This document shows positions 44,977-62,384 of a stretch of DNA of 64,000 nucleotides, piece after piece. The DNA comes from Candidatus Babelota bacterium (lineage in GTDB: Bacteria > Babelota > Babeliae > Babelales > Babelaceae). A program made the position numbers and the translations under genes. The notes beneath the pieces were generated by a model. The model was not told where the DNA came from and searched no databases. It was given only the letters and a program-made list of their open reading frames with translations. How positions within the stretch are numbered: the first letter of the stretch is position 1; every line of letters begins with the position of its first letter. Location: assembly GCA_003165355.1 (NCBI GenBank), contig PLTG01000021.1:334-64333 (forward strand), in the 5' to 3' direction.

Positions 44977-45603
44977 ATGAAAAAAGTATATCTTTTACCC
45001 TTTATATTCTTCGTTTTTAAAGTTTTTTCTATAAAAACCTCGAAAACTGTGATCTCAATGCCTCAAAAGACATTCTTGATGGGCGTTTCTAAAGACCCAC
45101 GGGTTAAGGCGTTCTTGGATCTTCTGGCCCATGGTGAAGGGACCTCTTACCACCCTGAGGTAAAAATGTTGCCTGATCAGTACCGCATAAGTTTCTGTAA
45201 CGATGGCAAGATCGCCTCATTTAAAGATCACCCTCGCAAAAAATGTTGCAATCGGGTTGGAGATCGCATTATTTGCGCTACTGCAGCCGGAAGGTATATG
45301 TTTTTGCAAAGAACCTGGGACTGGGTAAGGGAGAAGTTAGCGTTGAACGATTTTAGCCCTACCAACCAAGATTTAGCTGCTATTTATCTTCTGATGGAAT
45401 CCGGGGCGTTGGATGAGATTTTAAAAAATAACATAAAGGGAGCTATTGCCAAGGCAAGTAGGTTCTGGGCGCCTATGCCCGGGTCTTCATATAACCAGCC
45501 ACAAACCAAATTATCAGAGCTTTTAGGGATATATCAAAAAAGACTTACATTTTACCAGTCATTTGATGGCGTGTATAAAGATAAGAAGGGGGGAAATAGA
45601 TGA
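44977..45603 (+). CDS. lambda R-type lytic transglycosylase (GH104 lysozyme-like), membrane-anchored or secreted
   Basis: AFLDLLAHGEGTSY, DHPRKK, AAGRYMFLQRTWDW, LNDFSPTNQD and FWAPMPGSSYNQ align by eye with phage lambda endolysin R (AFLDMLAWSEGTDN, DHPRKL, GAGRYQLLSRWWDA, LKDFSPKSQD, IWASLPGAGYGQ). Hydrophobic N-terminus. Confidence 0.85.
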   Translation: MKKVYLLPFIFFVFKVFSIKTSKTVISMPQKTFLMGVSKDPRVKAFLDLLAHGEGTSYHPEVKMLPDQYRISFCNDGKIASFKDHPRKKCCNRVGDRIICATAAGRYMFLQRTWDWVREKLALNDFSPTNQDLAAIYLLMESGALDEILKNNIKGAIAKASRFWAPMPGSSYNQPQTKLSELLGIYQKRLTFYQSFDGVYKDKKGGNR

Positions 45604-46697
45604 TAAAAAAATTCACTGTTATGTTTTTAGCGATGTGCGCGATGATCTGCGTTCTATTTGCAGGGGTGTATCTCTATAAAAACATACGATCAATTTATAT
45701 GAGTGCCATCCCAGTCCAAGAGTGCAAGGATAAAGAGACATTCGATTTGAAAAAACAGTCTAAAGTTAAGAAATATCATAATAATGGCAAAATCGAGCAT
45801 ATTATCTTTTCTGTTCCCGAAGAACGCGGATCTCAAAAAAATATCCTGCGAAAAGGTATTTTAGTTACTCGTGCCCATGCGCGGGCCACCATCGTTATAT
45901 GCCATGGGTTTATGTGTAACAAAAATGATGTTAGCTTTCTGCGGAGCATATTTTACGATTATAATGTCATGGTCTTCGATTTCCGTGCGCATGGTGAAAA
46001 TAGTGAAAATCAATGCAGCTCTTTTGGCTTTAATGAAGTGCTCGATCTGGAAGGTGCCGTTGCCTTTATAAAAAGCAAGCCTGGGCTGGCAGCACTACCG
46101 TTAATAGGCTACGGCTTTTCAATGGGTGCCGTCACGGCTATTCTTGCGCAAGCACAGCATCCAGACATGTTCTCGGCCCTCGTTCTCGATTGCCCGTTCG
46201 ATTCCACTGAAATGGTAATTCATCGCCTTATAGAGCGGCTCACATTCACCGTGGGCGGCTATACCTACGGGCTTCCCGGGCGCAATCTTTTGAAAAAATA
46301 TGCGTATAACCACTCAGTTCAAGCGATGATCAAATATGCGCTCAGAGCAGTTGCCCATATCGGAACGCATGATATACAGTTATGCATTATTCCATCTGAT
46401 ACCGTTAATGAGATAAAAAAAGTTACCGTACCCTGCTTTTTTATCACCTGTAAAAATGATGATAAAGCGCCGGTTGATGCCGCGCGTGCTATCTATGCTA
46501 ACAAGCCTGGGTACAAACGGCTGTGGCTCACCAACGGGCGGTTACACTTTGATTCATTCTTTTACAATCCTGAAAAATATACTCATAAAGTGCGTTCATT
46601 TATCAAAAAATTTCTTGACGGTGAACTGAAAAATAAAACGGAATCAAAGATTGTTGAAGATATTGACGATCCATTCGTTCATAAGGAGGTTTCATGA
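45600..46697 (+). CDS. alpha/beta-fold hydrolase with N-terminal TM anchor
   Basis: Nucleophile elbow GYGFSMGA, an HG oxyanion-type motif (ICHGFM), and a late D...H pattern. The start overlaps the upstream stop (ATGA). Confidence 0.75.
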   Translation: MIKKFTVMFLAMCAMICVLFAGVYLYKNIRSIYMSAIPVQECKDKETFDLKKQSKVKKYHNNGKIEHIIFSVPEERGSQKNILRKGILVTRAHARATIVICHGFMCNKNDVSFLRSIFYDYNVMVFDFRAHGENSENQCSSFGFNEVLDLEGAVAFIKSKPGLAALPLIGYGFSMGAVTAILAQAQHPDMFSALVLDCPFDSTEMVIHRLIERLTFTVGGYTYGLPGRNLLKKYAYNHSVQAMIKYALRAVAHIGTHDIQLCIIPSDTVNEIKKVTVPCFFITCKNDDKAPVDAARAIYANKPGYKRLWLTNGRLHFDSFFYNPEKYTHKVRSFIKKFLDGELKNKTESKIVEDIDDPFVHKEVS

Positions 46698-47359
46698 AAT
46701 ATCTTGTACATATACTACTCATCGTTTTAGTAAGCGTGTTAGTTATCACGTATGGCGCTTTGCATGCAGAGACTATAAAGACAGAAGGCCGCTTTCTTGA
46801 TACCGCATCAGATTACCCTATAACCGTCGCCTACGTGTATGACGGCTGCCACCACCAGTCATCTGAATATTGCAGTAGTCGCAAGCCATCATATCATCAG
46901 AATAAAAGAACATTATGGAATGTAAGTAGAGACAGTGAGCTATGTGCAGCGAATGTGCATTTTATGGCTATCGATACCTCACGTAATCGCATAAAGAATG
47001 TTAAGCAGTTTTTATCAATAACGGGGTCAGATTCTTTTATAGTTTTTCTTAATGGCTATATAGCAAATTATGACTATCTATCCGGCACACCAACCGAACA
47101 GCAATTGATAGCCTATATTAAACGCGCAGCGGGAAATGCTCTTACTACAGACGAACGTCTTGAACGGCAGCCTGGTCAGTGCGCACAGAAATGCCATCGC
47201 TATGCTCCGTGTGATACAACCCAGTCATGGCGTGGTAACCCCTCTTGGCAGGTTCAAGGATATTACGGGGTGATGGGTGGCGAGCCGCCGCATAGTTATG
47301 GATACGCACAGGCGGGAGCATATAGCTATGGGATGGGCTTTAGGCGATTACCAAATTAA
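46694..47359 (+). CDS. membrane-anchored hypothetical protein with Tyr/Gly-rich tail
   Basis: N-terminal TM segment LVHILLIVLVSVLVITYGAL. The start overlaps the upstream stop (ATGA). C-terminal GYYGVMGGEPPHSYGYAQAGAYSYGMGF. Confidence 0.6.
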   Translation: MKYLVHILLIVLVSVLVITYGALHAETIKTEGRFLDTASDYPITVAYVYDGCHHQSSEYCSSRKPSYHQNKRTLWNVSRDSELCAANVHFMAIDTSRNRIKNVKQFLSITGSDSFIVFLNGYIANYDYLSGTPTEQQLIAYIKRAAGNALTTDERLERQPGQCAQKCHRYAPCDTTQSWRGNPSWQVQGYYGVMGGEPPHSYGYAQAGAYSYGMGFRRLPN

Positions 47360-47390
47360 CAATAGATATTCTTAGGATGAATAGCCGCTT

Positions 47391-47505
47391 CAGTCTTCGC
47401 TCTTTTGAGCTACGCCCGACAGGCGCCCTGCTGTGTCCGCCATAGCACACTGTGCGACGGCTGGAAGTGAAGCGTAGCGAAATCGAACGGGTACGACGGC
47501 AAAAC
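47391..47505. repeat. GC-rich dispersed repeat, long copy
   Basis: Contains gcgccctgctgtgtccgccatagc...gcgacggctgga (as in 6848-6920 and 7024-7068) fused to the 38-nt core shared with 18673-18710. Lies directly upstream of the five-paralog array. Confidence 0.65.
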
Positions 47506-47546
47506 AAAGTTGCGAAAGAGCTCTAATAAATAAAAAGAGAAATTGT

Positions 47547-49424
47547 ATGAAAAAAATTATTTTACTTATCTTGCTTATATCTGGGCAAATATCTGCTTTG
47601 CAAGTCGGGCTTAACCAAAAACGAAATTTAGCCACGCCAAGGGAGCGATTGCAAGCAAAGCGTGCCAATCTGGATTTAAAAAAAACGAGCGAATTTCCCT
47701 ATGCTCCAAGGGGGTTACTTATATTTTTAAATGATCTTGAAAAAGAGTGTACTGCAGAGGCGGTGGGGCAGGCATTCACTTACGCTCTTCTTCAACAGCC
47801 GGGGCCTATCATAGTGTCAGCAAATTTGGTACGCAGTGTGTTTGCAAGCGATCGAAAAATGGATTTGGTCGGTGCCATTTCTCGATTCGAGGGAGAAAAA
47901 GTTTCTTTTGATGATACTAATCCCTGTACAGTACTTGTTTCTTCTGACTTTGACATACAAAAATGGATTATAAAAGAAATAAGCAGTGATCTTTATCTGC
48001 TTTTACCGCATAGTTATCTTGAAAGATTAAACATAAGCTCTGCGCAAGTGAATTATTGGGAAAAACCTGAAGTTAATCAAATCGAATTGATCTTGGGATT
48101 TAAAGTGAATCATATGCGCACGATTCAAGTGGACGATATGATCGAAAAACCTCTCACACGCAAACATGAAAACGCTGCCTATTTTGTAGATGCTTTATAT
48201 AAAGGGGATCTTTTTTGTACCCGTGCGGATTATCAAAAAAGTTTGATAGCGCAACCTCTTTGGACATGGTTTATGGTGGGGCACGGATATACGGGAGAAA
48301 CGATTGTTGATATACCTATAAATGATTTTAAAAAGCTTCTTGATTTTGCATCAACTCGAATAACTATGCGCTTGCTTGCCTATTTGACCTGTTATGGCGC
48401 GGGTATAAATACGGAACTTTTATATAATGATGAAAAAACTGGCATACAGAAAACATATCCTTTTGCGATCGTAACGCAGGCGATAACTGATTCTCAAACT
48501 TGGGGGTATATACATAAAGAAGCGTCTTCATCGCGTGAAGTAATGGAGGAATATACAGAACGGCCCTATGATTTTGATACTTTTATAAAATTGTCAGAAA
48601 AAAGAGATATCGATTATGAAGAAATCCTAGGATGTTTATTTAATATAATTCCGAAGAAAAATTTTCCAGGTAATATCGCACAAATTAAATTACCGGGAAT
48701 AGAATGGTTTTCGACGGTCGCAGGCAAGCAAGATGTGGTAAGTATAGGTTCTGTCATGTCTCGCACAAGAACAGCGCCATTGAATATTCAGAGATTTTTT
48801 ACTAAAAAGTCAGCAAAAGCAAATCCTGCAAGAGTAGATCCTAAAGCGCTGCTTTTAGAAACAACATATATACCATTTGAAATCATCATTAATGGCTCTA
48901 GCTTGGAATATATTATATCCATGGTCCCTATGCCTGGTATGGCGAGTATTTATATCGCTGCTTTAAAATCTTCAGTACATGATATTAATAAAATATTGGA
49001 TTTAATCCAACGTATTAATGGTTACGATACTAAGTGGCTCAACAAAAGATTTTATATATCGCGTATTACCGCTTTAAATGATAAGGATCAATTGACCGAA
49101 TATAGAGATGTCGTAGTATTTCCTAATGGTTACACCTATTTTAAGCAGGGATCGAACATTTACTATAAACGTATGGTAGATGAAAAAGCGATAGACGAAA
49201 ATTCTGAGGAGGGGCGTGAAGTAGTGAGTTGTTTACGTGATCATTATAGTGAAGAAACTTTTGATGCAATAAAAAGCGAAGCATATAACTATTCAAAAAA
49301 GTTGGATGTAGGAACTACGGAACAAACTGAAGGACTTTCACCAGAAAATATCAGTAAGCTTGAGGAATTATTTAAAAAACGTAGTGCTGCGGCTGCCGTT
49401 GGGAAGTTGGCTGCTTCTGAATGA
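47547..49424 (+). CDS. secreted protein, array paralog 1 (candidate caspase-like His/Cys protein)
   Basis: Leader MKKIILLILLISGQISA. WFMVGHG (His codon 48282) and LLAYLTCYGAG (Cys codon 48390). Shares most conserved family blocks with copies 2-4. Confidence 0.85.
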   Translation: MKKIILLILLISGQISALQVGLNQKRNLATPRERLQAKRANLDLKKTSEFPYAPRGLLIFLNDLEKECTAEAVGQAFTYALLQQPGPIIVSANLVRSVFASDRKMDLVGAISRFEGEKVSFDDTNPCTVLVSSDFDIQKWIIKEISSDLYLLLPHSYLERLNISSAQVNYWEKPEVNQIELILGFKVNHMRTIQVDDMIEKPLTRKHENAAYFVDALYKGDLFCTRADYQKSLIAQPLWTWFMVGHGYTGETIVDIPINDFKKLLDFASTRITMRLLAYLTCYGAGINTELLYNDEKTGIQKTYPFAIVTQAITDSQTWGYIHKEASSSREVMEEYTERPYDFDTFIKLSEKRDIDYEEILGCLFNIIPKKNFPGNIAQIKLPGIEWFSTVAGKQDVVSIGSVMSRTRTAPLNIQRFFTKKSAKANPARVDPKALLLETTYIPFEIIINGSSLEYIISMVPMPGMASIYIAALKSSVHDINKILDLIQRINGYDTKWLNKRFYISRITALNDKDQLTEYRDVVVFPNGYTYFKQGSNIYYKRMVDEKAIDENSEEGREVVSCLRDHYSEETFDAIKSEAYNYSKKLDVGTTEQTEGLSPENISKLEELFKKRSAAAAVGKLAASE

Positions 49425-49454
49425 AGATTGAAATTTTTTGAAGGGGGAAATCGT

Positions 49455-51239
49455 ATGAAAAAAATTATTTTACTTATCTTGCTTCTATCTGGGCAGGTAT
49501 GTGCCCTTCAGCCGGGGCTTGCGTCTGCGCGAAAATTTGCTACACCAATGGAACAATTGCAGGCAAAATCTCGAAGTACTGCTCAGCCAATTCAAACTGA
49601 AGAGATTGATGTTCCGGAATATGCGCCGCGGGCCGTGCTTATTTTTCTGCATGAGCCCAATAATTTTTGTATTCTTGAATCGACTAGCTTAAATTTAACT
49701 GAAGCACTTATTCAAAAAGCTGGTCCAATCATAGTATCAACAAGTCTTTTGCGAAGTGTCTTGAGTTATCATTTGCCCCCATCGATGAATGAAATAGACA
49801 AAAACTATAACCCTTGTAGAAGGCTTTTGACACAATTTGACAGTAATGAATGGGTTATTAAAGAGGCGACAGAAGATCTTTATCTCCTCATTCCCCATAC
49901 GTATCTTAAAATGGTTAATATTGAAGTTGCTGAGCTTCATCAAGAAAATGCAAATTCTTTAACAGCGGTTGAGTTGAAGCTGGGGCTTAAGGTTAATCAT
50001 ATGCGCTCGTTGCCGATCGAAAAGATAAATACCGCAAGTCTTTTGCCGCTCGAGAATAATTATTTTGTGCGTGCATTACAAGAGGGAAAATTATTTTGTG
50101 AGCGGAATAATTATCAAAATAGCGAAGTTCCACAACCATTATGGACATGGTACTTGTCGGGTCATGGAATATTTAAAAATATTATCGCAGGAATTCTATT
50201 GGAGGACTTTAAGAAGGTACTTGCATTCGTTTCAACTAAAATTAACATGCGGTTGCTTATGTATCAGACATGCTATGGCGCTGGAGCAAATACCGAACTT
50301 ATTTACCATGATGAAGAAACAACCTTGCAAAAGACATACCCCTTTATTATTGCCACGCAGGCGATTTCTGATGCACCTACTACACATACTTTTTTTATCC
50401 CAGCTTTGGGTGATAAAATTGCGCGCCCTGATAATTTTCGTGCTTTTGTAGCATTGGTGCTTGAGCAGGACCTTGATTATGAGAGGGCAATCGCCAGTTT
50501 GTTTCATATAAACCCAGACCTCTATTACGCGGGTAATATTGCTCAAATTAAATTGCCGGGAACTGAGTGGTTTTCAGTTATGGCAGGTAAAAATGATGTG
50601 GTGACTATAGGAAAAATCATGGCACGGACGAGAAAAGAGCCATTAGATATACAAAAATTTTTTAGGACAAAAGATCCGAAAGCGATACTTTTAGAATCGA
50701 CTTATATTCCTTTTGAATTGATTATTAACGCGCCGCATATGGAATACATTATTTCTGTTGCTCCGGGTAACATGTCGACATATTTGCGGGGAATCCGTTC
50801 TGAGAAACATGATATAAACCAGATACTTAAATGGTTTCAGGGTATCAGCCTGACTGACGATGAGCTTTTTTATAAAACAATATACATAGAGCATATTGTT
50901 GTACAGGATAAAAAGGGTCAATCAACAGAATATACGGATATTGTAATTATGCCATCTGGAGGCGTCTATTTCAAACATGGTTCAGATATCTTTTTCAAGG
51001 AGCTGGATAAATTTGCCGTAAATAGTGCGCAGGTGCCTAACGATATGTGGGCTAGGGTATATGGGCCATCTTTCATTAAAGATATAAAGGAACGGAGTCT
51101 GAAATATGCACAAAGATCTAATGCGCGTGCCACTGAAAAGACTGAAGGATTATCACCAGAAAACATGAGCAAGCTTGAAGATGCAATCAAACAAAAAGCT
51201 GTAGCGGTTGGTAAATTAAAAAATGAGGGGACGATATGA
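49455..51239 (+). CDS. secreted protein, array paralog 2
   Basis: ATG at 49455 lies behind aagggggaa. WYLSGHG (His 50163) and LLMYQTCYGAG (Cys 50271). The track ORF starts at 49428. Confidence 0.85.
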   Translation: MKKIILLILLLSGQVCALQPGLASARKFATPMEQLQAKSRSTAQPIQTEEIDVPEYAPRAVLIFLHEPNNFCILESTSLNLTEALIQKAGPIIVSTSLLRSVLSYHLPPSMNEIDKNYNPCRRLLTQFDSNEWVIKEATEDLYLLIPHTYLKMVNIEVAELHQENANSLTAVELKLGLKVNHMRSLPIEKINTASLLPLENNYFVRALQEGKLFCERNNYQNSEVPQPLWTWYLSGHGIFKNIIAGILLEDFKKVLAFVSTKINMRLLMYQTCYGAGANTELIYHDEETTLQKTYPFIIATQAISDAPTTHTFFIPALGDKIARPDNFRAFVALVLEQDLDYERAIASLFHINPDLYYAGNIAQIKLPGTEWFSVMAGKNDVVTIGKIMARTRKEPLDIQKFFRTKDPKAILLESTYIPFELIINAPHMEYIISVAPGNMSTYLRGIRSEKHDINQILKWFQGISLTDDELFYKTIYIEHIVVQDKKGQSTEYTDIVIMPSGGVYFKHGSDIFFKELDKFAVNSAQVPNDMWARVYGPSFIKDIKERSLKYAQRSNARATEKTEGLSPENMSKLEDAIKQKAVAVGKLKNEGTI

Positions 51240-52954
51240 AGAAGATTTTGTTACTTGCTTTGCTCATAAGCGGACACCTTTATGCTCTGCAGCCGGGGCT
51301 TGCGTCTGCGCGAAAATTAGCGACGCCAGTGGAGCAATTGCAGACGAAACACCAAAATACTGCTACGGGTACCTTGTATCCTCCGGAGGTGGAGTCGGAC
51401 TTTTCTGCTGTTGAATATGCTCCACGTGGATTACTTATTTTTTTGAATCATCAGCTGAGCAAATCTTGCATTACTGAGGCAATTAGCTTGAATTTAACCG
51501 AGGCGCTCGTTCAAAAGGCCGGACCCATCATCGCATCAAAAAATCTGGTGCACAGTGTCTTAGCCAAGTATCTGCCACCCGCTCAAAAAGGGAATTATTC
51601 TTGGTCCGAAATTGATTTAAATAACGAAAATAATCCGTGTACGAGACTTATTTTGAAATTTAACAGTGATGAATGGGTAATCAAAGAAATAACGCAAGAT
51701 CTTTATCTTCTTATTCCGCAAGCATACCTTTTGTGGGTAACTATCGACCCTGCTGAACTGAGCCTTGATAATGCGGCGTCATTAACGACAACGGAGCTCA
51801 AGCTCGGCCTTAAGGTCAACCATATGCGCACTGTATCGATCGAACAGGTGAATAAGGGGCGCTTCGAGGCCTTAGGCGACGGGTTTATAAAGGCACTGCG
51901 GGAGAATATGCTCTTTTGCGAGCGTAGGAACTATCAAGGGAGCGAAGTGCCTCAACCCCTTTGGACGCTCTATTTTTCCGGGCATGGTGAATTTGAAGAA
52001 ACTATGGCTGGAATGAGTCTTGATGATTTTAAGAAGATGCTTATCTTCGCTTCAGATAAAATCAATGTAAGATTACTTATGTATCAATCCTGCTATGGCG
52101 CGGGGCTTAATGCTGAGCTTATTTATTACGACCAGGCGGCAGCCACCAATAAGACGTATCCCTTTGCCATCGCTACCCAAGCCATTACTGATGCACCTAC
52201 CATTCAAAGTCACGTTGTGTTTGGTAAAAAAGTGCCGCGGCCGGATGACTACCAAGGCTTTATGGCATTGGTGCATGAGCAAGATCTGGATTATAAAAAA
52301 GCGATCGCGTTAGTGTTTCATACGGAGCCAGACATAAGCTATAGGGGCAATATTGCACAAATTAAATTGCCGGGTACAGGATGGTTTTCTGTGGTCGCTG
52401 ATAAAAATCATATTGTGACTATTGGCAACGTCTTGGCTCGTACAAGAAAAAATCCTTTAAATGTTCAAAAATATTTTAAGGCAACGGCATTGAAAGCGCT
52501 TCTTCTTGCCGCGCCCTACATTTTATTTGATCTGATTATCGATGTGCAGTTGGATTTTATCATCTCACTTGTCCCAGGAAGTGGTGCCACGTATCTGCAA
52601 GGGATTCGTTCCGATAAATATCCTATAGATACGATATTGGGTTGGTTTCAGCGCATTCCACTTACTGATAGCAGCCTGTCGCTGGACAAGATGTTTTATA
52701 TAGAGCATATTGTTGCCCCGAATCAAGAGAGGAAATTAACTGAATATACCGATGTTTTCATTGCATCTTCGGGGGGCGCCTATTTTAAGCATGATTCAAA
52801 TATTTTTTTCAAAAATGATCAGCATGTAAGCGCGAAACGTATGACTGAGCCATTTACAGGAGGGGTATTTGGTCCGGCCTATTGGGATGGCTCTCTGGTT
52901 AAAGGCCTAAAGAAGCGAAAGAACAAATATGCAGAGCAAAAATTGCTCAATTAA
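51236..52954 (+). CDS. secreted protein, array paralog 3 (lacks the C-terminal tail)
   Basis: ATGA overlap with copy 2. LYFSGHG (His 51983) and LLMYQSCYGAG (Cys 52091). Ends before the EKTEGLSPEN tail. Confidence 0.85.
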   Translation: MKKILLLALLISGHLYALQPGLASARKLATPVEQLQTKHQNTATGTLYPPEVESDFSAVEYAPRGLLIFLNHQLSKSCITEAISLNLTEALVQKAGPIIASKNLVHSVLAKYLPPAQKGNYSWSEIDLNNENNPCTRLILKFNSDEWVIKEITQDLYLLIPQAYLLWVTIDPAELSLDNAASLTTTELKLGLKVNHMRTVSIEQVNKGRFEALGDGFIKALRENMLFCERRNYQGSEVPQPLWTLYFSGHGEFEETMAGMSLDDFKKMLIFASDKINVRLLMYQSCYGAGLNAELIYYDQAAATNKTYPFAIATQAITDAPTIQSHVVFGKKVPRPDDYQGFMALVHEQDLDYKKAIALVFHTEPDISYRGNIAQIKLPGTGWFSVVADKNHIVTIGNVLARTRKNPLNVQKYFKATALKALLLAAPYILFDLIIDVQLDFIISLVPGSGATYLQGIRSDKYPIDTILGWFQRIPLTDSSLSLDKMFYIEHIVAPNQERKLTEYTDVFIASSGGAYFKHDSNIFFKNDQHVSAKRMTEPFTGGVFGPAYWDGSLVKGLKKRKNKYAEQKLLN

Positions 52955-52970
52955 AAAAACGGGGGAAGTC

Positions 52971-54830
52971 ATGAAGAAGATTTTATTAATTATTGTGCTC
53001 GTATCTGGGCAGATGCGTGCTGCACAGGTCGGGCTTTCGCAGCAGCGTATAACAACGCCTATGGAGCAGTTGCAAGAGCAATACCGCAATGCACCGGTTA
53101 AAGCGAGTGCATATACATTAGAGCAAGAGGCTGGCCAGCCAGATATTGAGTATGCGCCACGCGGATTACTTATATTTTTGGATGAGCCTCGGGAGTATTG
53201 CCTCAAAAAAGAAGCAGTCAGCCTTGATTTGACAGAAGCAATTATTCAAAAAGCAGGGCCAATAATAGTATCGGCTAATATATTGCGAAGTGTTTTGAAA
53301 GATTACTTACCACCGTCAGAAAGAACAATGTATGGGAAAACAGTTTCTTACGTTAAATCTTTCTTTTCAAAAGAGAGTAAATCAGAAAAAGCTTTCAACT
53401 CTTGTGAGATACTTATATCCAAAAACTTTGATAGTAGTGAGTGGATTATAAAAGAGGTATCAAAAGAGCTTTATTGCATGTTGCCCTATACATATCTTGA
53501 CATGGTTAAAGTTGCTCTTGCTGATGTGCAAAAAGAAAATGCGTCCTCTATAACCCCGACTGAATTAACATTAGGACTTAAAGTAAATCATATGCGTAAT
53601 GTAGATATACGAGAAATAAGCACTGCTCAGATTATACCATCAGATAGGTCTTATTTTGTTCGAGCATTGACAGGTGGCAATTTATTCTGCGAGCGTGCAG
53701 CTTATCAAGAAAGTTATATATCGCGGCCTTTATGGACGTGGTACATGATGGGTCATGGATTTGTTAGTCAATACATAGTCGGGATGCCCATTGAAGACTT
53801 TAAAAAAGTGCTTACATTTATCACTGATCATTTAACTATGCGATTACTCGTGTATCAAACATGTTATGGTGCTGGGTTAAATACCGAGCTTGTATATAAT
53901 GATGAAAAAACCAATATGCAAAGAGCATATCCATTTACTATTGTTACACAAGCGATCACTGATGCTAGTGTCGCTCAATTAGTTCTCAGTTATGGTGTCA
54001 AAAGAGAGCGACCACGAGACTTTAGCACTTTTACCAAATATGGTCATGATAACGATATTGATTATGAAAAAGTAATAAAGACAGTGTTTCATATAGCTCC
54101 TGATCCATTTTATAAAGGTAATATCGCACAAATCAAATTGCCTGGAATAGAATGGTTTTCCGTTGTTGCCGGAAAAAATGATGTGGTCGGTATAGGAACT
54201 ATTATGGCTAAAACACGCAGTAAGCCATTAGATATTCATAAATGGTTTAAAGCGGAAAATCCCAGAGCATTGCTTTTAGAAACCACTTATATACCCTTTG
54301 AGATCATTATTAATGTGCCTCATTTAGAATACATAATATCAGTAGTGGCTGGGGAGACTAATACTTATATAGAAGCGATAACTTCTTCAGTGTATGACAT
54401 CAATCAAATTCTTAATACATTCCAGCGTATAGAACTATCTGCGGGTATTGAATTGATGAAAAAAATATACATTTCCCGTATTACTGCATTAAATGATCAG
54501 GGACAACCGACAGAATATAAAGATATCATTATCGCGCCGAATAATAATGTTTATTATACGCAAGGTGCTGATATTTTTTTCAAAAGGCCTGATCAAAAAG
54601 CGGTAAGTACTGCGCAAGAAAGCGATTTATTCCTTAAAATTTATAATAAGCAAGTATTTGATTTCATAAAGAGTCAAGCCCAACGATATGCGAAGAAATC
54701 GAGCAGACGAGCAACTGAAAAAACTGAAGGACTTTCGCCAGAAAGTATCAGTAAACTTGAGAATGTATTAAAAACGCGCGATATATCAAAAGCTACAGCA
54801 GTTGGTGCACTAGCAAAGGCAGGGAAATAA
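52971..54830 (+). CDS. secreted protein, array paralog 4
   Basis: ATG at 52971 lies behind gggggaag. WYMMGHG (His 53754) and LLVYQTCYGAG (Cys 53862). The track ORF starts at 52929. Confidence 0.85.
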   Translation: MKKILLIIVLVSGQMRAAQVGLSQQRITTPMEQLQEQYRNAPVKASAYTLEQEAGQPDIEYAPRGLLIFLDEPREYCLKKEAVSLDLTEAIIQKAGPIIVSANILRSVLKDYLPPSERTMYGKTVSYVKSFFSKESKSEKAFNSCEILISKNFDSSEWIIKEVSKELYCMLPYTYLDMVKVALADVQKENASSITPTELTLGLKVNHMRNVDIREISTAQIIPSDRSYFVRALTGGNLFCERAAYQESYISRPLWTWYMMGHGFVSQYIVGMPIEDFKKVLTFITDHLTMRLLVYQTCYGAGLNTELVYNDEKTNMQRAYPFTIVTQAITDASVAQLVLSYGVKRERPRDFSTFTKYGHDNDIDYEKVIKTVFHIAPDPFYKGNIAQIKLPGIEWFSVVAGKNDVVGIGTIMAKTRSKPLDIHKWFKAENPRALLLETTYIPFEIIINVPHLEYIISVVAGETNTYIEAITSSVYDINQILNTFQRIELSAGIELMKKIYISRITALNDQGQPTEYKDIIIAPNNNVYYTQGADIFFKRPDQKAVSTAQESDLFLKIYNKQVFDFIKSQAQRYAKKSSRRATEKTEGLSPESISKLENVLKTRDISKATAVGALAKAGK

Positions 54831-54860
54831 ATTATAAATTGTGGGAAAGGTGGGACATAT

Positions 54861-56690
54861 ATGAAAAAAATAATCTTGATAATTTTATTAGCAGTTACGC
54901 AAATGCATGCTGCACAAGTTGGTCTTTCGAAACAGCGTATAGTAAGTCCGATGCAGCAATTACAAGAGAAATATCTAATTGAAAAAAATCAAAAGGCTCT
55001 ATTCATTATTCTTAATGAAAACTTGGAAGCGTATCCAAAAGAGAGCATGCAGTCACGTCTTGAATGTTTCTTAAGAACGCAGAATTTCCCTATTATTACT
55101 AAAAAAAATCTTTTAATACGCGTAGTTGATAGTAACCCGGATATTTTTAAAAAAAATAAATGGTTCATTAAAAAATGTGATAACTATGTTCTCCTGGTTC
55201 CATTTGAACAGATTGAGGCCGACGAGTCAATCGATTTAATACCTGGCTTGCCTTCTCATGAACTTACTGATTTAGAAAAAAAATTGGGGCTAAAAATCAA
55301 TCACCTCGAAACGCTTGATCATCAAATTTTTGTATCAAATGAAACAAACAGTTCTAAAATTGTCTCCCGTGTTGTTGATACTATAACAGGCTCTATTAAA
55401 GGCGATATTCTTTTTTCTAAGATAAGAGGACATCATCCCAGATTCAACGATGTTTTATCCAAAATATTTGTCGTCCATACTGATATATACCCAAAAGGAT
55501 CGCATAAAGAAATTCATAAAGAGGAAGCCGAATGGGTGATCATGGCAGCGGGCCATGGTGGAGGAATAGGCATAGACCGGACCTCATTTTGGTCGGTTAT
55601 AGCTGATTTTTCATTGACAGAATTTAAGAAAATGATGGATTTTTTTAAGAGATCGCTCTCTATAAAAGTTGTTTTTATCCAGTCTTGTAGTATCGGCAAA
55701 AATATCGCACAAGATGTATTTACTTCTGAAAATTTAGATAATACGATACAGCAAGCGTATCCTTTTGATATTATTTTTTCGGCTATGGGAGATGAATACA
55801 CATATTTTGAGAAGCATGCATGTGAAAAGGGCGCATATAGTGAATTTATTAAAAAAATAAATGCTACGTCAAACCCAGATTATTATACAATTTTAAATAA
55901 AACTATCGTACAATCACATAGTGAAAATCCAGTGCCCCAAATTCGTTATAAAAATACCGAATACTTTTTACCTGTTTATGCGCTTTCTTCAAAGATTCAG
56001 GACGCCCTCATTATCAGTAATGTTATGGCTGCTACGCGTAAAGAACCGTTAATAATAAAACGCACTATTAAAAATGTAGTACTCTATTCTCCAGTGATCT
56101 CCTTTCCTATTAAATTAGCGAAAGAATTTTTTGGAAACTGGTACTATAAGTTTAAACCATCAGTGGACTTTGTATCTTCTTTTTTTGAAAATAAAGTTAT
56201 TCGCTTTTTTTCTTTGGAAATTGAATATCCGACACAACTTTCCTATAAATGGAAGCAACTGGATTCTGGAAAATTGGGTATATTCTGCGATTTATTGGTT
56301 ATTAATGATTGGGCATCAGTTCCATACCCGGGCGTCGCTGAGCAACAGTTAAGAGAGATTTTTCCCGGTGCAAAAAATGTAGCTGTTGATCCAACTCGCG
56401 CAAATTATTTATTGGGAAAAGTAACATTGTATAATGTAGCTTTCACTAAAGAAGCTGTTACTGGGATGGTAAGGTCACCAGATAATCGTGAATATATTGT
56501 GATATATAAAGATGGCAGTATTATGCAATTAAGCCCTGCGGACAGCACAAAGAAAAAACAGGATTATATTGTTGCCTTTGAAAAAAGATTTGGGAAAATT
56601 CCACAGATGCCAGAAAGCATGAGTAAACTTGATGAATTATTTGAAAAACGTGTAGCGGCGGCGGCTGTTGGGAAGCTGGCAAGCTCTTAA
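54861..56690 (+). CDS. secreted protein, array paralog 5 (divergent)
   Basis: Same leader and AAQVGLSKQRIVSPMQQLQ start. VIMAAGHG (His 55554) and VVFIQSCSIG (Cys 55686). Same AAAAVGKLASS C-terminus as copy 1. The rest is much more divergent. Confidence 0.8.
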   Translation: MKKIILIILLAVTQMHAAQVGLSKQRIVSPMQQLQEKYLIEKNQKALFIILNENLEAYPKESMQSRLECFLRTQNFPIITKKNLLIRVVDSNPDIFKKNKWFIKKCDNYVLLVPFEQIEADESIDLIPGLPSHELTDLEKKLGLKINHLETLDHQIFVSNETNSSKIVSRVVDTITGSIKGDILFSKIRGHHPRFNDVLSKIFVVHTDIYPKGSHKEIHKEEAEWVIMAAGHGGGIGIDRTSFWSVIADFSLTEFKKMMDFFKRSLSIKVVFIQSCSIGKNIAQDVFTSENLDNTIQQAYPFDIIFSAMGDEYTYFEKHACEKGAYSEFIKKINATSNPDYYTILNKTIVQSHSENPVPQIRYKNTEYFLPVYALSSKIQDALIISNVMAATRKEPLIIKRTIKNVVLYSPVISFPIKLAKEFFGNWYYKFKPSVDFVSSFFENKVIRFFSLEIEYPTQLSYKWKQLDSGKLGIFCDLLVINDWASVPYPGVAEQQLREIFPGAKNVAVDPTRANYLLGKVTLYNVAFTKEAVTGMVRSPDNREYIVIYKDGSIMQLSPADSTKKKQDYIVAFEKRFGKIPQMPESMSKLDELFEKRVAAAAVGKLASS

Positions 56691-56797: not shown

Positions 56798-57370
56798 TTA
56801 AGCGCTGTGGATCTGTTTTGCAAAAAGATACAGATTATCATCGTCATCTTCATTTTCATAAGTAGCCATCTTTCCACCGATATAGGTAAAGCCAAGCTTA
56901 TTATAAAATCCTCTTGCAGAGGGCAAGCTTTCAAGAGACATCGAATTATACCCTAAAAGATGGGCAATAGCTGTATTATCAAAAACTTCGATACAAGCAC
57001 GTCCGATGCCCTTATTTCGATAGTCTGCATGGACATCTATGCTATTTATAAAAAAGGCTGTATCTTTTTTGGTACGTAAAAAACTTGCTTTAAAATCAAG
57101 ATAATTATTTTCAGTTTTTAACTTGATGATAAATCCCTTTTTTTTGGGATTTTTAATTATAGTCCCCTGTAATGAGGCACCTGCTTGAGCGAGGGTAATT
57201 TTTTTTGATAATGGAAGTAATTGCAGTGCGAGGGCTGGCTCTAGTGCTTGCCATCTATCAGCAAAACGGATTTGTGCCTCTGAATCGCACGTGATGTTTA
57301 TCGGAAATTCTTGAGCATGCAGCGATATGCTTGCGAGTAATAAGAGCTTAATGATTTGCAGTTTTGCCAT
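56798..57370 (-). CDS. secreted GNAT-family N-acetyltransferase
   Basis: Leader MAKLQIIKLLLLASISLHA. Acetyl-CoA motif A VHADYRNKGIGRACIE, followed by ARGFYNKLGF. Confidence 0.8.
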   Translation of the reverse strand: MAKLQIIKLLLLASISLHAQEFPINITCDSEAQIRFADRWQALEPALALQLLPLSKKITLAQAGASLQGTIIKNPKKKGFIIKLKTENNYLDFKASFLRTKKDTAFFINSIDVHADYRNKGIGRACIEVFDNTAIAHLLGYNSMSLESLPSARGFYNKLGFTYIGGKMATYENEDDDDNLYLFAKQIHSA

Positions 57371-57381
57371 ACTAAAATACC

Positions 57382-58413
57382 TTATTCTTCATCTTGCCAA
57401 GTTAGTAAAACTTTTACTTTGTCTGGTATTTCTGCTGGACGAGTAGTCATCTTTCTACCGCGCAGATCAACTAATTCTAAATCTGGCAATTGACTGAGAA
57501 TCGTCCAATCTGCTTTCATTTTGATAGCGCTATTTTGAACAAGATGCAACTTTCTCAGTTTTTTAAAATTGCGTAGCTCTTCTGGGAGTTTTCTCATATT
57601 GCAATCATTCAATCCTAAATCTTGAACCGATGTTGGAATATATTCCCAATGAACATCAGGAGATGAGAAATCATTATGAACGATCCAAAGATTTTTTAAA
57701 TTATTTAAAGAACGTAACCATTCTGGCAATTGTGTTAAGTCGCATCCCGGTAAAGATAGATCTTCTAATTTTTGAGAAATAGACTCTAGATGATACTGGT
57801 TGTGCAATGAGTTTCCTCTAAGATTTAACCGCTTCAAATGAGTTAAAGAGCTTATTTGCTGGGGTATCTGTGTGAGGCCGTATGCAGTTATTGATAATTT
57901 TTGCAGATTTGTGCATTTCTCTAGTAGGCTGAGATCTAATGGGTTTTGCTCATTGTCTTTTGAATAAAAATAATGAGAAGGCTCACAAATATCGATTTCA
58001 AGTAAATCCCCACTGGCACATTCTTTAAGTGCCTTGTTGAAATTTCGATATCTCCCCCATTGAGTCACAAAATGTCGACTATCAAGTTTTGTGAATGCGA
58101 TCTGCGTCAATATTTTTGTTGCCGTACTTACTTGCTTAAGCTTTAGTATGTCGCCATATAAATAATTTGCCATATGGGTAAAAATTTCCGGTGGTAGCTT
58201 CTCTAATAAACGGGGGTCCCCTTGAGATTCTTGATGCGATTGAGTTGTTGATACGAGTTGCGTATCTTCAGAGGCCACAGGCTGGGCTAATGGTTGTTGA
58301 ATAAGGCGGCTTAAGGTAAGCCCACAATGAATATTTGATAAAAAGCTTATACAGAAAATTATGAATATGTGATATAACTTCGTAAAAAGTTTAATGATTT
58401 GCAGTTTTGCCAT
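57382..58413 (-). CDS. F-box / leucine-rich-repeat protein (eukaryote-like)
   Basis: ATG at 58413 gives MAKLQIIKLF plus a hydrophobic leader. The F-box-like LEKLPPEIFTHMANYLYGDILKLKQVS spans about nt 58084-58212. This is followed by LxxLxL repeats (LQKLSITAYGLTQIP, LKRLNLRGNSL, LEDLSLPGCDLTQLP and others). Confidence 0.8.
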   Translation of the reverse strand: MAKLQIIKLFTKLYHIFIIFCISFLSNIHCGLTLSRLIQQPLAQPVASEDTQLVSTTQSHQESQGDPRLLEKLPPEIFTHMANYLYGDILKLKQVSTATKILTQIAFTKLDSRHFVTQWGRYRNFNKALKECASGDLLEIDICEPSHYFYSKDNEQNPLDLSLLEKCTNLQKLSITAYGLTQIPQQISSLTHLKRLNLRGNSLHNQYHLESISQKLEDLSLPGCDLTQLPEWLRSLNNLKNLWIVHNDFSSPDVHWEYIPTSVQDLGLNDCNMRKLPEELRNFKKLRKLHLVQNSAIKMKADWTILSQLPDLELVDLRGRKMTTRPAEIPDKVKVLLTWQDEE

Positions 58414-58414
58414 G

Positions 58415-59248
58415 TTAGAATCCCTGTAAGAAAGTGTTGCCATTTTTGATATTTTTTATGAAATGTATGCCAAAATGGTTAGGTATAAGTGATGCTGCAA
58501 GTTGGCCACCGAAAAAGAACCCTTGTTCGGGAGTTATTGCCATCATTTTCGCTAATGGAGATGTCTTTGCCTCTTTCTCTAAGCGCTCGAGCTGTCGCGC
58601 AAGACGTTCATCAGTCGTAAGATTTTCAGGTGTTGATGTAGCAGGTTTTTGCACTTCAGGATGCTTAAAATAGCGCTCTAAAAGCCAGGGGCCCATAAAT
58701 GATACTGCGGTAGAGCCGACAGCAAGCACACGGACAAGGAGCGTTCCACGCGCGCCGGCAAGAGCACCTGCTTTATTCAGTTTATAGGTACCGTAACGTG
58801 CCTTAAAGGCTTTTTTACTTGCTTCGTCTCTGGCCTTAGGGTCCTGATACGATTCTTCTATAGTAGCATGATCAAGGGTCGTTTGAACTGCCTTTTTTGC
58901 ATGAGCTTCAGCAGCGCCCTTTACGGTATCTGAGACGTTGAGCAAGCCTGAGTTTACTGCAGTTATGAGAGTTAAGGCAAGGGGGAATGCAGCAAATGCT
59001 GCCCCAGATGCTGTTAAAACTGCTGTTTGGCCTTGGGTCATCTGGGGGAGTTCCCACAAATGGGTACGTAGACCAATGCCTTGATTGAGTGCAGCTTGGG
59101 CTATAAAACCTGTAGTAAAATGTGCAGCATAACGAGTAAGTGAGCTTTTATCAAGCTGAAAAGCTGCAGAGTCTTCTTTTTGAGCCATGAGAGGGCTTAA
59201 TGCAAAAGAAAGCAAAAATATCTTTTTATTCAAAAAGTTCATTATCAT
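58415..59248 (-). CDS. secreted or membrane hypothetical protein
   Basis: ATG at 59248 (or 59242) gives the leader MIMNFLNKKIFLLSFALSPLMA and avoids overlap with pepA. Two long hydrophobic segments. The stop lies 1 nt from the F-box gene start. Confidence 0.6.
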   Translation of the reverse strand: MIMNFLNKKIFLLSFALSPLMAQKEDSAAFQLDKSSLTRYAAHFTTGFIAQAALNQGIGLRTHLWELPQMTQGQTAVLTASGAAFAAFPLALTLITAVNSGLLNVSDTVKGAAEAHAKKAVQTTLDHATIEESYQDPKARDEASKKAFKARYGTYKLNKAGALAGARGTLLVRVLAVGSTAVSFMGPWLLERYFKHPEVQKPATSTPENLTTDERLARQLERLEKEAKTSPLAKMMAITPEQGFFFGGQLAASLIPNHFGIHFIKNIKNGNTFLQGF

Positions 59249-59360
59249 GATTATTCCCTGGTTATTTTTATTATTAAATATAAATATATCATAACTGAAA
59301 ATAATGTCAATCTGGGGGGAATGGGTGTGTAGTCTGACGAATGAAGTCTTTTTCTTCTTC

Positions 59361-59369
59361 TGGTATACT
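59361..59369 (+). promoter_or_regulatory. candidate extended -10 element upstream of pepA
   Basis: TGGTATACT, the same 9-mer as at 8880-8888, lies about 39 nt upstream of the pepA ATG. Confidence 0.3.
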
Positions 59370-59407
59370 ACTGATGTGATAATTTTTATTATTAAGAAAG
59401 AGCCATT

Positions 59408-60922
59408 ATGATTACTTTTAAACTTGCTGATCAGCATATACTGAATCAAGAGGCTGATTTATATGTGGGGTTTTGCCCTCAAAATGCCATCCCAGAAAAC
59501 ATTATAAGAGATTTTACCTCGCTCTATGCCCCGCTTAATGATCTTATTAAAAAAAGAAATTTTGCAGGTGCTGCAGGAAGCCAATTGGTTATCTCCGCCG
59601 CGCGTAATAACAAAGCGGTAACGCTTATGCTTGTCGGTCTCGGGTCTGAAAAAAAGTCTCAGGCAGACAGGTTAGAAAATGCGCGTCGAGCAATGGGTTT
59701 AGTGGTAAGAACAGTAGAGCATACCAAATCAACGCATGCCGCCGTTCTTTTACCCGATCACCACTGGTTTGCAATCAATGAATTTGAATTGACTAAAGAG
59801 CTTGTTGCAACGGCGATGATGGCAGGTTACCATTTTGACCAATTTATTACCGATGCAGCTGCAAAACTAACACAAAATTGTGAAATTACTCTCTGCGCTC
59901 CGGCGATTTTACATAATCAAATTTCAGTTGGTGTAGAATTTGGTCAACGTATTGGCCATGCGGTCAACCAAGCGCGCCAATGGTGCGATTTGCCCGCCGA
60001 TATTTTAACGCCAACTATTTTAGCTGAGCATGCTGCACGCATTGCAAAAGTGCATGATTTGAAGGCTACTATTTTTGATGAAGCGACCGTCAAAAAAATG
60101 GGCATGGGTGGCCTTGCAGGAGTTTCAGCAGGTTCTGCACAAGAGTGTAGATTTGTAGCTATTGAATATAAGAGTGGTCACCAAGATGCCCCTACTCTTG
60201 TATTAACGGGTAAGGGTGTCACCTTCGATTCAGGCGGCATTAGTATTAAGCCCGCAAATCGTATGGACGAGATGAAAGATGATATGGCTGGCGCAGCTGC
60301 GGTGATCTCTACGATGGAGGCCATTGCGCATCTTAAACCGCGCGTGAATGTTATCGGTATTACGCCAATTGCTGAAAACATGCCGAGCGGCACTGCGATC
60401 AAGCCGGGCGATATTATTACTTTTTATAACGGCATGACTGCGGAAGTTAAAAACACTGACGCAGAAGGGCGCTTAATTTTAGCTGACGCGTTATCCTATG
60501 CCGTTAAACATTATAAGCCTGATGCGATTATTAATGTGGCAACTTTGACTGGTTCATGTGCCGCTGCGCTCGGGCCATTCTTTGCGGGTATGATGAGTAA
60601 CCATGACGATCTGGTTGAAAAATTAACCAAAGCATCAAAACGCTCCGGCGACAGGCTCTGGAGATTGCCGTTTCATGATGATTACAAAAAGGCGGTTCGC
60701 TCAAGTGTGGCAGACATCTGTAACATTGGTAATGAAACATATAAAGCTGGGGCTATTACGGCTGGGTTCTTCTTGCAAAATTTTGTCGGTGATACGCCAT
60801 GGGTACATTTGGATATTGCGGGCACCTCGTTTAATGTTCCTGATATGAGCTACTATCGCCCGGGAGCTACTGGTTTTGGCGTTCGATTATTTATAGACTT
60901 TTTGATGCATTTTGAAGAATAA
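59408..60922 (+). CDS. pepA: leucyl aminopeptidase (M17)
   Basis: VGKGVTFDSGGISIKP-like LTGKGVTFDSGGISIKP, and NTDAEGRLILADAL. Confidence 0.96.
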   Translation: MITFKLADQHILNQEADLYVGFCPQNAIPENIIRDFTSLYAPLNDLIKKRNFAGAAGSQLVISAARNNKAVTLMLVGLGSEKKSQADRLENARRAMGLVVRTVEHTKSTHAAVLLPDHHWFAINEFELTKELVATAMMAGYHFDQFITDAAAKLTQNCEITLCAPAILHNQISVGVEFGQRIGHAVNQARQWCDLPADILTPTILAEHAARIAKVHDLKATIFDEATVKKMGMGGLAGVSAGSAQECRFVAIEYKSGHQDAPTLVLTGKGVTFDSGGISIKPANRMDEMKDDMAGAAAVISTMEAIAHLKPRVNVIGITPIAENMPSGTAIKPGDIITFYNGMTAEVKNTDAEGRLILADALSYAVKHYKPDAIINVATLTGSCAAALGPFFAGMMSNHDDLVEKLTKASKRSGDRLWRLPFHDDYKKAVRSSVADICNIGNETYKAGAITAGFFLQNFVGDTPWVHLDIAGTSFNVPDMSYYRPGATGFGVRLFIDFLMHFEE

Positions 60923-61358: not shown

Positions 61359-62384
61359 ATGAAAAAGATAGTTATAGGATTGTTACTATACGTACAGCAT
61401 GGATACGGTATTGAGCCGATCGGCTTAACAAACCTGGGTAATACCTGCTACATCAATTCGACTTTGCAATGTTTAGGTGCTATTCCAGAGTTAAGAAACT
61501 ATATCTTTAAATTTAGCTCGCACGATCCATTAACAGAAGAATTTAAAAGAATGCTCAAAAGCCCTATTGCTGGCCCGAAAGCGTTTGTAGAATGCGTCTC
61601 TGAAACCGGGATAATGGGTAAATTAGCAATTAATGCGCAACAGGACGCCGCCGAATTTTATGAAAAATTGATAAATAAATTACAACCGCAAGAAACAATA
61701 CACAATTTATTTCGCATCAATACAAAAATGGACACAATTTCTGCAAGCCGTGAATTTAAGCGTGAGCCCGTAATACAAGAAAGCACTATATTAAGAATCG
61801 GGTCACAATTTGTAACCAAGCAAAAGGGGATGTCGATTGAGGCTCTTATTAAAAATTATTTTTTGATTCCCCAAGAAGATACCATTCAAGTAGAAAGAGA
61901 TGGCGTCAATAAAGAATTTGATATTAAAGAAAAAAATAGTGGCCTGCATCTTTCCCCAATTCTGGTTGTTGCTGTGCCGCGTTTTGATATGGAGGGCAAT
62001 AAAATAAAAACGCCTCTATGGTCCAACATGAAGCCTCTTATTCTTACCGATGCTAAAAAAAATAAACATACCTATAACCTTTTAGGGTGCGTTTTACATG
62101 CAGGCGAAACGGTAGATAGTGGCCACTATACTGCAGTAGCACGATATGATAATGAATGGTTTTATTGTGATGATACGCAAGTGAGCCTTCAAGCGGAAAG
62201 CCAAGTGGGAGCGCGTTTAAGTAATCAAGATAATTTCGATTCTTACCTCTACTTTTTTAGAAAAGATTTCCCCCTCACATTGCAGCAAGTAGCCGACGAA
62301 GAAAAGAAATCACACTATCGGGGAGATCGGATCGTTCAAAAACAATTACCATTTCAACGTGGTCTGGCTGATGTTATTGAATGA
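61359..62384 (+). CDS. USP/UBP-type ubiquitin-specific cysteine protease (C19-like) with signal peptide
   Basis: Cys box GLTNLGNTCYINSTLQCL (Cys codon 61446), a QQDAAEF motif, and His box GHYTAVARYDNEWFYCDDTQV. Leader MKKIVIGLLLYVQHGYG. Confidence 0.85.
   Translation: MKKIVIGLLLYVQHGYGIEPIGLTNLGNTCYINSTLQCLGAIPELRNYIFKFSSHDPLTEEFKRMLKSPIAGPKAFVECVSETGIMGKLAINAQQDAAEFYEKLINKLQPQETIHNLFRINTKMDTISASREFKREPVIQESTILRIGSQFVTKQKGMSIEALIKNYFLIPQEDTIQVERDGVNKEFDIKEKNSGLHLSPILVVAVPRFDMEGNKIKTPLWSNMKPLILTDAKKNKHTYNLLGCVLHAGETVDSGHYTAVARYDNEWFYCDDTQVSLQAESQVGARLSNQDNFDSYLYFFRKDFPLTLQQVADEEKKSHYRGDRIVQKQLPFQRGLADVIE

Follow-up and report, generated by a model that had tools for sequence, protein, structure and literature searches.

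Five tandem genes from a Candidatus Babelota bacterium (assembly GCA_003165355.1, contig PLTG01000021.1) probably code for cysteine peptidases that are exported by the Sec route and belong to a family without earlier annotation; their predicted clan-CD catalytic domain is structurally closest to families C13 and C11. The genes lie at 47547–56690 of the window, by which we mean the whole 64,000-nt stretch analysed, and are numbered copies 1 to 5 along the + strand. Five same-strand paralogs had been placed at these positions by a first-pass annotation of the DNA, and the open reading frames (ORFs) were found exactly there:

47547..49424, + strand: copy 1, 625 aa; Sec leader, predicted clan-CD-like core with His246 and Cys282, C-terminal β domain and conserved C-terminal tail; 635 bits against the family hidden Markov model (HMM)
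49455..51239, + strand: copy 2, 594 aa from ATG 49455; His237, Cys273
51236..52954, + strand: copy 3, 572 aa; His250, Cys286; ATGA overlap with copy 2; lacks the conserved C-terminal tail
52971..54830, + strand: copy 4, 619 aa from ATG 52971; His262, Cys298; the modelled reference copy
54861..56690, + strand: copy 5, 609 aa; very divergent core with His232 and Cys276; 297 bits against the family HMM; keeps the organism-specific N- and C-terminal ends

Successive genes are separated by 30 nt, a 4-nt ATGA overlap, 16 nt and 30 nt, as had been described (spacers of 16–30 nt or an ATGA overlap). A purine-rich Shine-Dalgarno sequence precedes the ATG of copies 2–5, while copy 1 has a weaker AAGAGA. 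The mechanical ORF of copy 2 begins at TTG 49428, and a GGGGGA Shine-Dalgarno sequence stands upstream of ATG 49455; the latter was taken as the start because the gene call in independent contigs also gives 594 aa. The same array, with the same ORF lengths, is present in the gene calls of at least four independent metagenome contigs. Promoter and terminator scans across the array gave no excess over shuffled expectation, so we infer an operon from gene packing only. Identity to copy 1 is 48, 43, 50 and 28% for copies 2 to 5, and the sequence blocks first cited for clear homology are seen in the alignment. DNA identity among the copies is 0.4–0.7 and about half of the identical residues use the same codon; judged from these sequences, the array copies are old duplicates.

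An AlphaFold2 model of copy 4 was built from a 51-sequence alignment, and its secondary structure was assigned by DSSP. The model reached a mean predicted local distance difference test (pLDDT) score of 82.4 and a predicted template-modelling score (pTM) of 0.82, with core blocks above 90. Its main elements map to the window as follows:

53151..53963, + strand: predicted catalytic α/β domain, copy 4 residues 61–331 (from DSSP of the model, Foldseek and conservation)
53754..53756, + strand: putative catalytic His codon of copy 4; equivalents at 48282, 50163, 51983 and 55554
53862..53864, + strand: putative catalytic Cys codon of copy 4; equivalents at 48390, 50271, 52091 and 55686
54126..54590, + strand: predicted β-rich C-terminal domain, copy 4 residues ~386–540, conserved family-wide (QIKLPG.EWFS, TR..PL and IPFE blocks)

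In the first half of the modelled protein, β1 (61–69), α1 (82–93) and β2 (98–101) are followed by a family-specific insertion of ~150 residues (102–250). Strand β3 (252–260) then leads into G261-H262-G263, and α3 (274–287) connects it to β4 (290–296), which leads into S297-C298. Beyond the Cys come α4 (303–309), β5 (323–327), the conserved D331, the β-rich domain (~386–540) and low-confidence C-terminal helices. The ~230 residues before the His had earlier been described as unrecognised. This does not hold for residues 61–101, which are predicted to form β1-α1-β2 of the same α/β domain; what follows them is the ~150-residue insertion particular to the family. For the β-rich C-terminal domain of copy 4, neither a recognisable relative nor a separate fold match was found in Foldseek searches of PDB and BFVD. 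The copy 5 model was weaker (pLDDT 68.5), with core topology and His/Cys placement as in copy 4. In both models the His stands two residues past one β-strand and the Cys two residues past the next, with a helix between them. A His and a Cys just past strand ends, joined by a β-α-β crossover, is the arrangement of clan CD peptidases such as caspases and legumain. From the strand, helix and strand order in the models, we infer that the two residues are close in space.

Clan CD peptidases dominated the fold searches with both models. For copy 4 they filled the top 23 PDB matches and 39 of the top 50, headed by legumain (5lua_A, E 0.022, prob 0.91); PIGK, C11 iotapain, the TcdA CPD, plant asparaginyl endopeptidases and ligases, and MALT1 were also matched. 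Folds from outside the clan in this search, such as methyltransferases and Argonaute, had prob values of 0.01–0.15. With copy 5, the entire top 35 and 47 of the top 50 were clan CD proteins, the best being legumain (E 7.8e-3, prob 0.94) and PIGK (prob 0.93), accompanied by caspases-3/6/7/8, C11 and SAVED-CHAT. Among the viral structures of BFVD, a library with few such proteins, a C11-like protease (rank 2), a metacaspase and a C14 protein came within the top 12. The clan CD reading of the first-pass annotation was thus supported at the level of fold, by matches that dominate though they are weak by score (E 8e-3 to 0.05). Its likening of the proteins to caspases needs correction in one point, legumain and PIGK (C13) and C11 being structurally nearer. 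The link to clan CD is best read as a remote relationship, supported by consistency across matches and by no single strong score.

The putative dyad is conserved across the family. All ten codons first listed for it are in frame and encode His or Cys, at the described spacing of 36 residues in copies 1–4 and 44 in copy 5, which has an 8-residue insertion after the His. Only 14 columns of the 51-sequence alignment are invariant, among them G261-H262-G263 and C298 (copy 4 numbering). When 176 sequences were aligned to the family HMM, the His and its preceding Gly were present in all 176, the following Gly in 174 and the Cys in 175. The pair on which the original assignment turned is therefore essentially invariant over these diverged members. 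Its family-wide context is a hydrophobic strand and G-H-G, then, 35 residues on, a second hydrophobic strand and (S/T)-C-(Y/F)-(A/G)-(A/G)-G-x-N. As regards the likeness to a caspase-type Q-x-C-x-G signature, the Cys does follow a hydrophobic strand, but in place of the QACxG pentapeptide the family has (S/T)-C-(Y/F)-(A/G)-(A/G).

Export is predicted from the N-termini. Each of the five proteins begins with the Sec leader already noted in the first reading, namely MKKI(I/L)L, a hydrophobic run of ~10 residues, Ala and then (A/L)Q. None of them has a lipobox Cys. A comparable N-terminal leader is found in at least 113 of 169 homologues. The leader and the conserved C-terminal tail are located as follows:

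47547..47597, + strand: Sec-type signal peptide of copy 1, MKKIILLILLISGQISA followed by LQ; equivalent first 17 codons in every copy
49287–49421 (copy 1), 51108–51236 (copy 2), 54687–54827 (copy 4) and 56550–56687 (copy 5), + strand: C-terminal helical tail of ~45 residues, ..TEKTEGLSPExxSKLExxxKxR..AAVGKLA, found by a tail HMM and modelled as low-pLDDT helices

The predicted cleavage site is placed by the conserved Ala at −1. Within the first ~40 codons (47547–47670 and equivalents), all five copies share the mature N-terminus A/L-Q-V/P-G-L....T/S-P.E/Q-Q-L-Q, which is not family-wide. The model shows it as a helix of low confidence, and it may be a propeptide. The tail HMM had no match in copy 3, in other family members or in the other ORFs searched. 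Copy 5 retains the N-terminal 40 residues and a near-unchanged tail, while its core is as far from copies 1–4 as from any member. Recent gene conversion was considered for these conserved ends and rejected, as the codons agree at only about half of the identical residues. The organism-specific ends may be sorting, targeting or pro-peptide modules.

Sequence-level searches did not place the proteins in a known family. Pfam and NCBIfam returned nothing relevant for the five copies, and Pfam searches of the 51 aligned members (E ≤ 5) returned Ank and LRR alone, in a few members. Sequence-profile searches of the PDB, run with profiles of 5 and of 51 sequences, yielded nothing beyond chance matches (ribosomal L5, SSB and an amyloid-like protein). 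No significant sequence-profile relationship to the clan CD families C11, C13, C14, C25, C50, C80 or CHAT was found by Pfam, NCBIfam, PDB profiles or hhalign. Nor did any profile from Pfam, NCBIfam, PADLOC or the PDB sequence searches assign the family to a competing fold. In the best local hhalign alignments, which pick out the His–Cys segment, the family His pairs with legumain His148 and with caspase-3 His121, and the family Cys pairs with caspase-3 Cys163. By curated models the proteins are not members of C13, C14 or C11; the most fitting description is a family of their own whose fold is clan-CD-like. The claim that the family is undescribed agrees with what was found: it is large, named by no curated resource searched, and no literature description was found. 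A word-indexed search with copy 4 returned ~50 unnamed relatives, a few of which carry ankyrin or LRR repeats as fusions. When 1.84 billion cluster representatives were searched exhaustively with a profile, 1,663 proteins passed E ≤ 1e-3 and 587 passed E ≤ 1e-30, the 1,663 being clusters at the 50% identity level. Public sources label these proteins 'hypothetical protein', and full-text literature searches on clan CD enzymes, legumain and cysteine proteases in Dependentiae or Babeliales gave no description of the family.

Several results weigh against the assignment to active clan CD peptidases. No curated clan CD Pfam model matches any of the 51 aligned members, even at E ≤ 5. Comparison of the family profile with single sequences by hhalign gave E 0.2 for human legumain and 0.26 for caspase-3, neither significant; a C13 mini-profile gave 0.02 over 15 columns, again not significant, and this profile is shallow, consisting of vertebrate legumains at least 84% identical plus PIGK. 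The human legumain and PIGK sequences were 100% identical to those in the PDB save for engineered point mutations, the inactive PIGK entry carrying C206S. In the fold searches, neither model had a PDB Foldseek match at E ≤ 1e-3, TM-scores were only 0.3–0.44 and root-mean-square deviations were 6–12 Å. The copy 4 and copy 5 models use one shared alignment and hence are not fully independent. Finally, four of the five window copies are without the near-invariant Asp71 and four are without Glu74, both in the loop after β1; their loss could mean altered or reduced activity.

Among known systems, C13 (legumain, PIGK/GPI8; PF01650) heads the Foldseek lists of both models (legumain prob 0.91–0.94, PIGK 0.93). 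The two families have in common a β-strand followed by His-Gly, ~12 residues, a 14-residue helix, a 7-residue strand, x-Cys, small residues and a short helix. In alignment, WTWYMMGHGF...RLLVYQTCYGAGL of this family stands against ILIYMTGHGG...LLFIIDTCQGASM of PIGK and VFIYFTDHGS...MVFYIEACESGSM of legumain. They differ in several respects. Neither the five copies nor the 51 members match PF01650, and the hhalign comparison is not significant. The His–Cys spacing is 36 residues (44 in copy 5) versus 41–42 in C13, and the ~150-residue insertion between β2 and β3 sets this family apart. Ser/Thr rather than Glu-Ala precedes the Cys, and the legumain hhalign alignment covers the His–Cys segment alone. 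The C-terminal domain is β-rich, whereas legumain has a helical LSAM prodomain. In legumain, Arg44, His45, Glu187 and Asp231 make up an S1 pocket with Asn/Asp specificity. Of these, Arg44, His45 and Glu187 are not evident here; an acidic D-D-x-E loop follows β1 instead.

The C11 family (clostripain, PmC11, Bacteroides 'iotapain'; PF03415) is likewise secreted and bacterial, with a C-terminal domain packed on the catalytic domain. It gave the longest Foldseek alignments, at 358–365 columns and TMt 0.33 (6nag_B for copy 4, 6n9j_A for copy 5). An acidic S1 residue confers Arg/Lys specificity on C11 enzymes, and the conserved Asp residues of the present family parallel it. Against membership, there is no PF03415 match, prob values are below those of legumain, and the W.IK, LGLKVNHM and QIKLPG.EWFS blocks are this family's own. 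With C14 (caspases, metacaspases, MALT1) the proteins share dyad order and strand context, and viral metacaspase/C14 proteins reach TMt 0.40; fold-search prob is weaker than for C13, however, there is no PF00656 match, and no sign of the caspase p20/p10 dimer architecture was seen in this family.

The S1 pocket of clan CD enzymes is built from the loops after β1 and β5. After β1, the rest of the family reads L-D(96%)-D(75%)-S-E(90%), whereas window copies 1–5 have D/N/H/N/N at position 71 and R/E/N/L/L at position 74 (copy 4 residues 71–75, 53181–53195). Asp331, after β5, is kept in all five. Given the place of these loops in the S1 pocket, the pattern suggests a preference for a basic P1 residue in most family members and a divergence of specificity among the array copies. 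The putative S1-loop diversification thereby suggests a set of enzymes with different specificities.

In the mechanism that we propose, the N-terminal signal peptide would carry each protein out of the cytoplasm. The invariant His (after β3, with Gly on both sides) and Cys (after β4) would then lie next to each other where the strands of a parallel β-sheet have their C-terminal ends, acting as the general base and nucleophile of a putative catalytic dyad for peptide-bond cleavage. Likely elements of the S1 pocket are the loop after β1 (consensus L-D-D-S-E) and the conserved Asp that follows β5, with a basic P1 residue favoured in most members. Regulation, or substrate and host targeting, is the most likely function of the ~150-residue insertion, of the β-rich C-terminal domain and of the variable C-terminal extensions; the extensions comprise ankyrin or LRR repeats in some relatives and the conserved helical tail here. 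Copies 1–4 would represent a tandem expansion particular to this lineage, to which a fifth, very divergent copy is added.

Upstream of the array lie the rpoA/L17 end of a ribosomal cluster, an S33-type α/β hydrolase and two unknown exported proteins. Downstream are a GNAT protein with a leader, an F-box and LRR protein, an M17 leucyl aminopeptidase and a UCH/USP deubiquitinase. The neighbouring features are:

44977–45603: unannotated ORF with an N-terminal hydrophobic leader, no Pfam match
46694–47359: 221-aa ORF with a hydrophobic N-terminal leader and a Gly/Tyr-rich C-terminus; a sub-threshold Creatinase_N match alone
56798–57370, − strand: GNAT acetyltransferase with an N-terminal hydrophobic leader, convergent with copy 5
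57382–58443, − strand: F-box (weak Pfam match) and LRR protein, a eukaryote-like ubiquitin-system gene
58415–59449, − strand: unannotated ORF, no Pfam match
61359–62384, + strand: UCH/USP-type deubiquitinase (PF00443, E 1e-31)

An exported GNAT acetyltransferase is unusual and could be another effector. Several long relatives of the array proteins end in ankyrin repeats or bear LRRs, and the secreted effector repertoires of Dependentiae and amoeba symbionts, with their ankyrin, LRR, F-box and USP proteins, are comparable: the phylum is shared, Sec leaders are common, and domains for eukaryote-type interactions occur as fusions or in adjacent genes. For Chromulinavorax destructans, a cultured member of the Dependentiae, signal peptides were reported on 44% of coding sequences; its secreted proteases and ankyrin proteins were put forward as host-directed effectors, possibly delivered also via outer-membrane vesicles (PMC6561590). 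That study lists M3, M15, M23, M41, M48, C11 and C65 peptidases recognised by standard models (PMC6561590); unlike them, the present family matches no standard model and is absent from the literature searched. The leaders, the ankyrin/LRR fusions, the F-box and USP neighbours and the Chromulinavorax precedent make it plausible that the proteins act outside the cytoplasm, probably on the host, host manipulation being read from this context.

The proteins might instead be active clan-CD-like peptidases that take no part in host manipulation, scavenging amino acids from host or environmental protein or maturing the bacterium's own envelope proteins in the periplasm. We consider this somewhat unlikely. 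The sole evident signal is the Sec leader, which guarantees periplasmic export at most, an M17 leucyl aminopeptidase and an S33-type α/β hydrolase are encoded nearby, and secreted proteases of C. destructans were proposed to break down host structures for reuse (PMC6561590). Yet the ankyrin and LRR fusions of several members point to recognition of specific eukaryotic proteins, F-box/LRR and USP genes adjoin the array, and the putative diversification of the specificity loop fits specific targets better than bulk digestion. A different chemistry on the proposed fold and dyad is also conceivable, the enzymes acting as 'sortase-like' transpeptidases or ligases that cut a C-terminal signal from substrates and transfer them to an acceptor. 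Clan CD has yielded transpeptidases repeatedly, among them GPI8/PIGK, the plant peptide asparaginyl ligases and the type IX secretion system sortase PorU. PIGK (prob 0.93) and the plant ligases VyPAL2 and OaAEP1 are among the closest structural neighbours, and array copies carry a conserved organism-specific C-terminal tail. We nevertheless find this quite unlikely: ligase and hydrolase are indistinguishable at the resolution of the models, the neighbouring genes include none for a partner subunit or acceptor synthesis, and no other window ORF shares a common C-terminal signal. Unlikely too, if less so, is a wider scenario in which a Dependentiae-specific clan CD branch supplies not bulk proteases but diversifying site-specific processing enzymes, or GPI8/PorU-like transpeptidases, for delivery into protist hosts. 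The variable β1 loop, together with exchangeable C-terminal modules (ankyrin, LRR, helical tail), would determine which substrates are chosen, and the array would be a specificity series arising from a host–parasite arms race.

Two further readings dispute the fold or the activity. The resemblance to clan CD could be superficial, a generic Rossmann-like α/β domain having recruited the His and Cys for other chemistry (acyl- or thioester-transferase, metal binding) or for a structural purpose. Fold-search E values all above 1e-3, TM-scores below 0.5, a few low-probability methyltransferase folds with copy 4 and the lack of a significant sequence link to any clan CD family are compatible with this. 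It is made distinctly improbable, however, by the composition of the matches: clan CD is, by our estimate, a very small share of the PDB and yet accounts for 39 and 47 of the top 50. These matches span C13, C11, C14, C80 and CHAT with prob 0.8–0.94, against 0.01–0.15 for other folds, save a 77-residue local match to SepF-like 3zie (prob 0.6). The arrangement is moreover that of clan CD: His before Cys, each directly behind a hydrophobic strand, a Gly following the His and an intervening helix. Scaffolds or adhesins that stem from a peptidase family but are catalytically dead would account for the loss of Asp71 and of Glu74, each in four of the five window copies, and for copy 5, with its extreme divergence and 8-residue insertion after the His. 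Pseudo-enzymes, though, usually lose their catalytic residues, and here the His and Cys are kept in every copy, including copy 5, and in 175–176 of 176 relatives, together with the flanking Gly and Ser/Thr. We regard inactive proteins as very improbable.

Dependentiae (TM6) are widespread obligate intracellular parasites of protists whose effectors are almost entirely uncharacterised. Reading the array as exported His/Cys clan-CD-type peptidases gives a testable hypothesis for a very large Dependentiae family that no curated resource names. If true, it would add to clan CD a new family with an unusual insertion and C-terminal domain, and annotate thousands of 'hypothetical proteins'. It would also offer concrete candidates, with defined active-site mutants, for host- or surface-protein processing by these bacteria.

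Other origins and features were tried and set aside. A defence-system origin was rejected, with no PADLOC match at E ≤ 1 and neighbours that are housekeeping and eukaryote-like effector-type genes, as was a viral origin, no relative having been found in IMG/VR. The 187-nt spacer upstream of copy 1 (47360–47546) is markedly GC-rich relative to the ~40% GC genome; it was rejected as a structured RNA (folding z-scores +0.9 and −0.5, no Rfam match).

Reference genomes with the family are metagenome-assembled genomes (MAGs) labelled Candidatus Babeliales or Dependentiae, others that are unclassified, and three labelled Pseudomonadota. The last are MAG contigs L007, L020 and L022, labelled 'uncultured Pseudomonadota' though carrying family members; mis-binning, mislabelling or a wider distribution may explain them. 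In a neighbour-joining tree, copies 1–4 form one clade, to which P0004, from another organism, is the next-closest sequence by distance. Copy 5 sits on a long branch at roughly the same distance from every member, its core ~26% identical to the other copies. Some genomes have several loci, some loci hold tandem pairs, and the window array is the largest seen. Tandem arrays of at least two family ORFs were seen in other Babeliales genomes at L007 6703–10805, L008 7144–12214, L009 2550–6532, L012 1–3110 and L017 7689–11632. Local duplication of the family is therefore recurrent and extends beyond the window.

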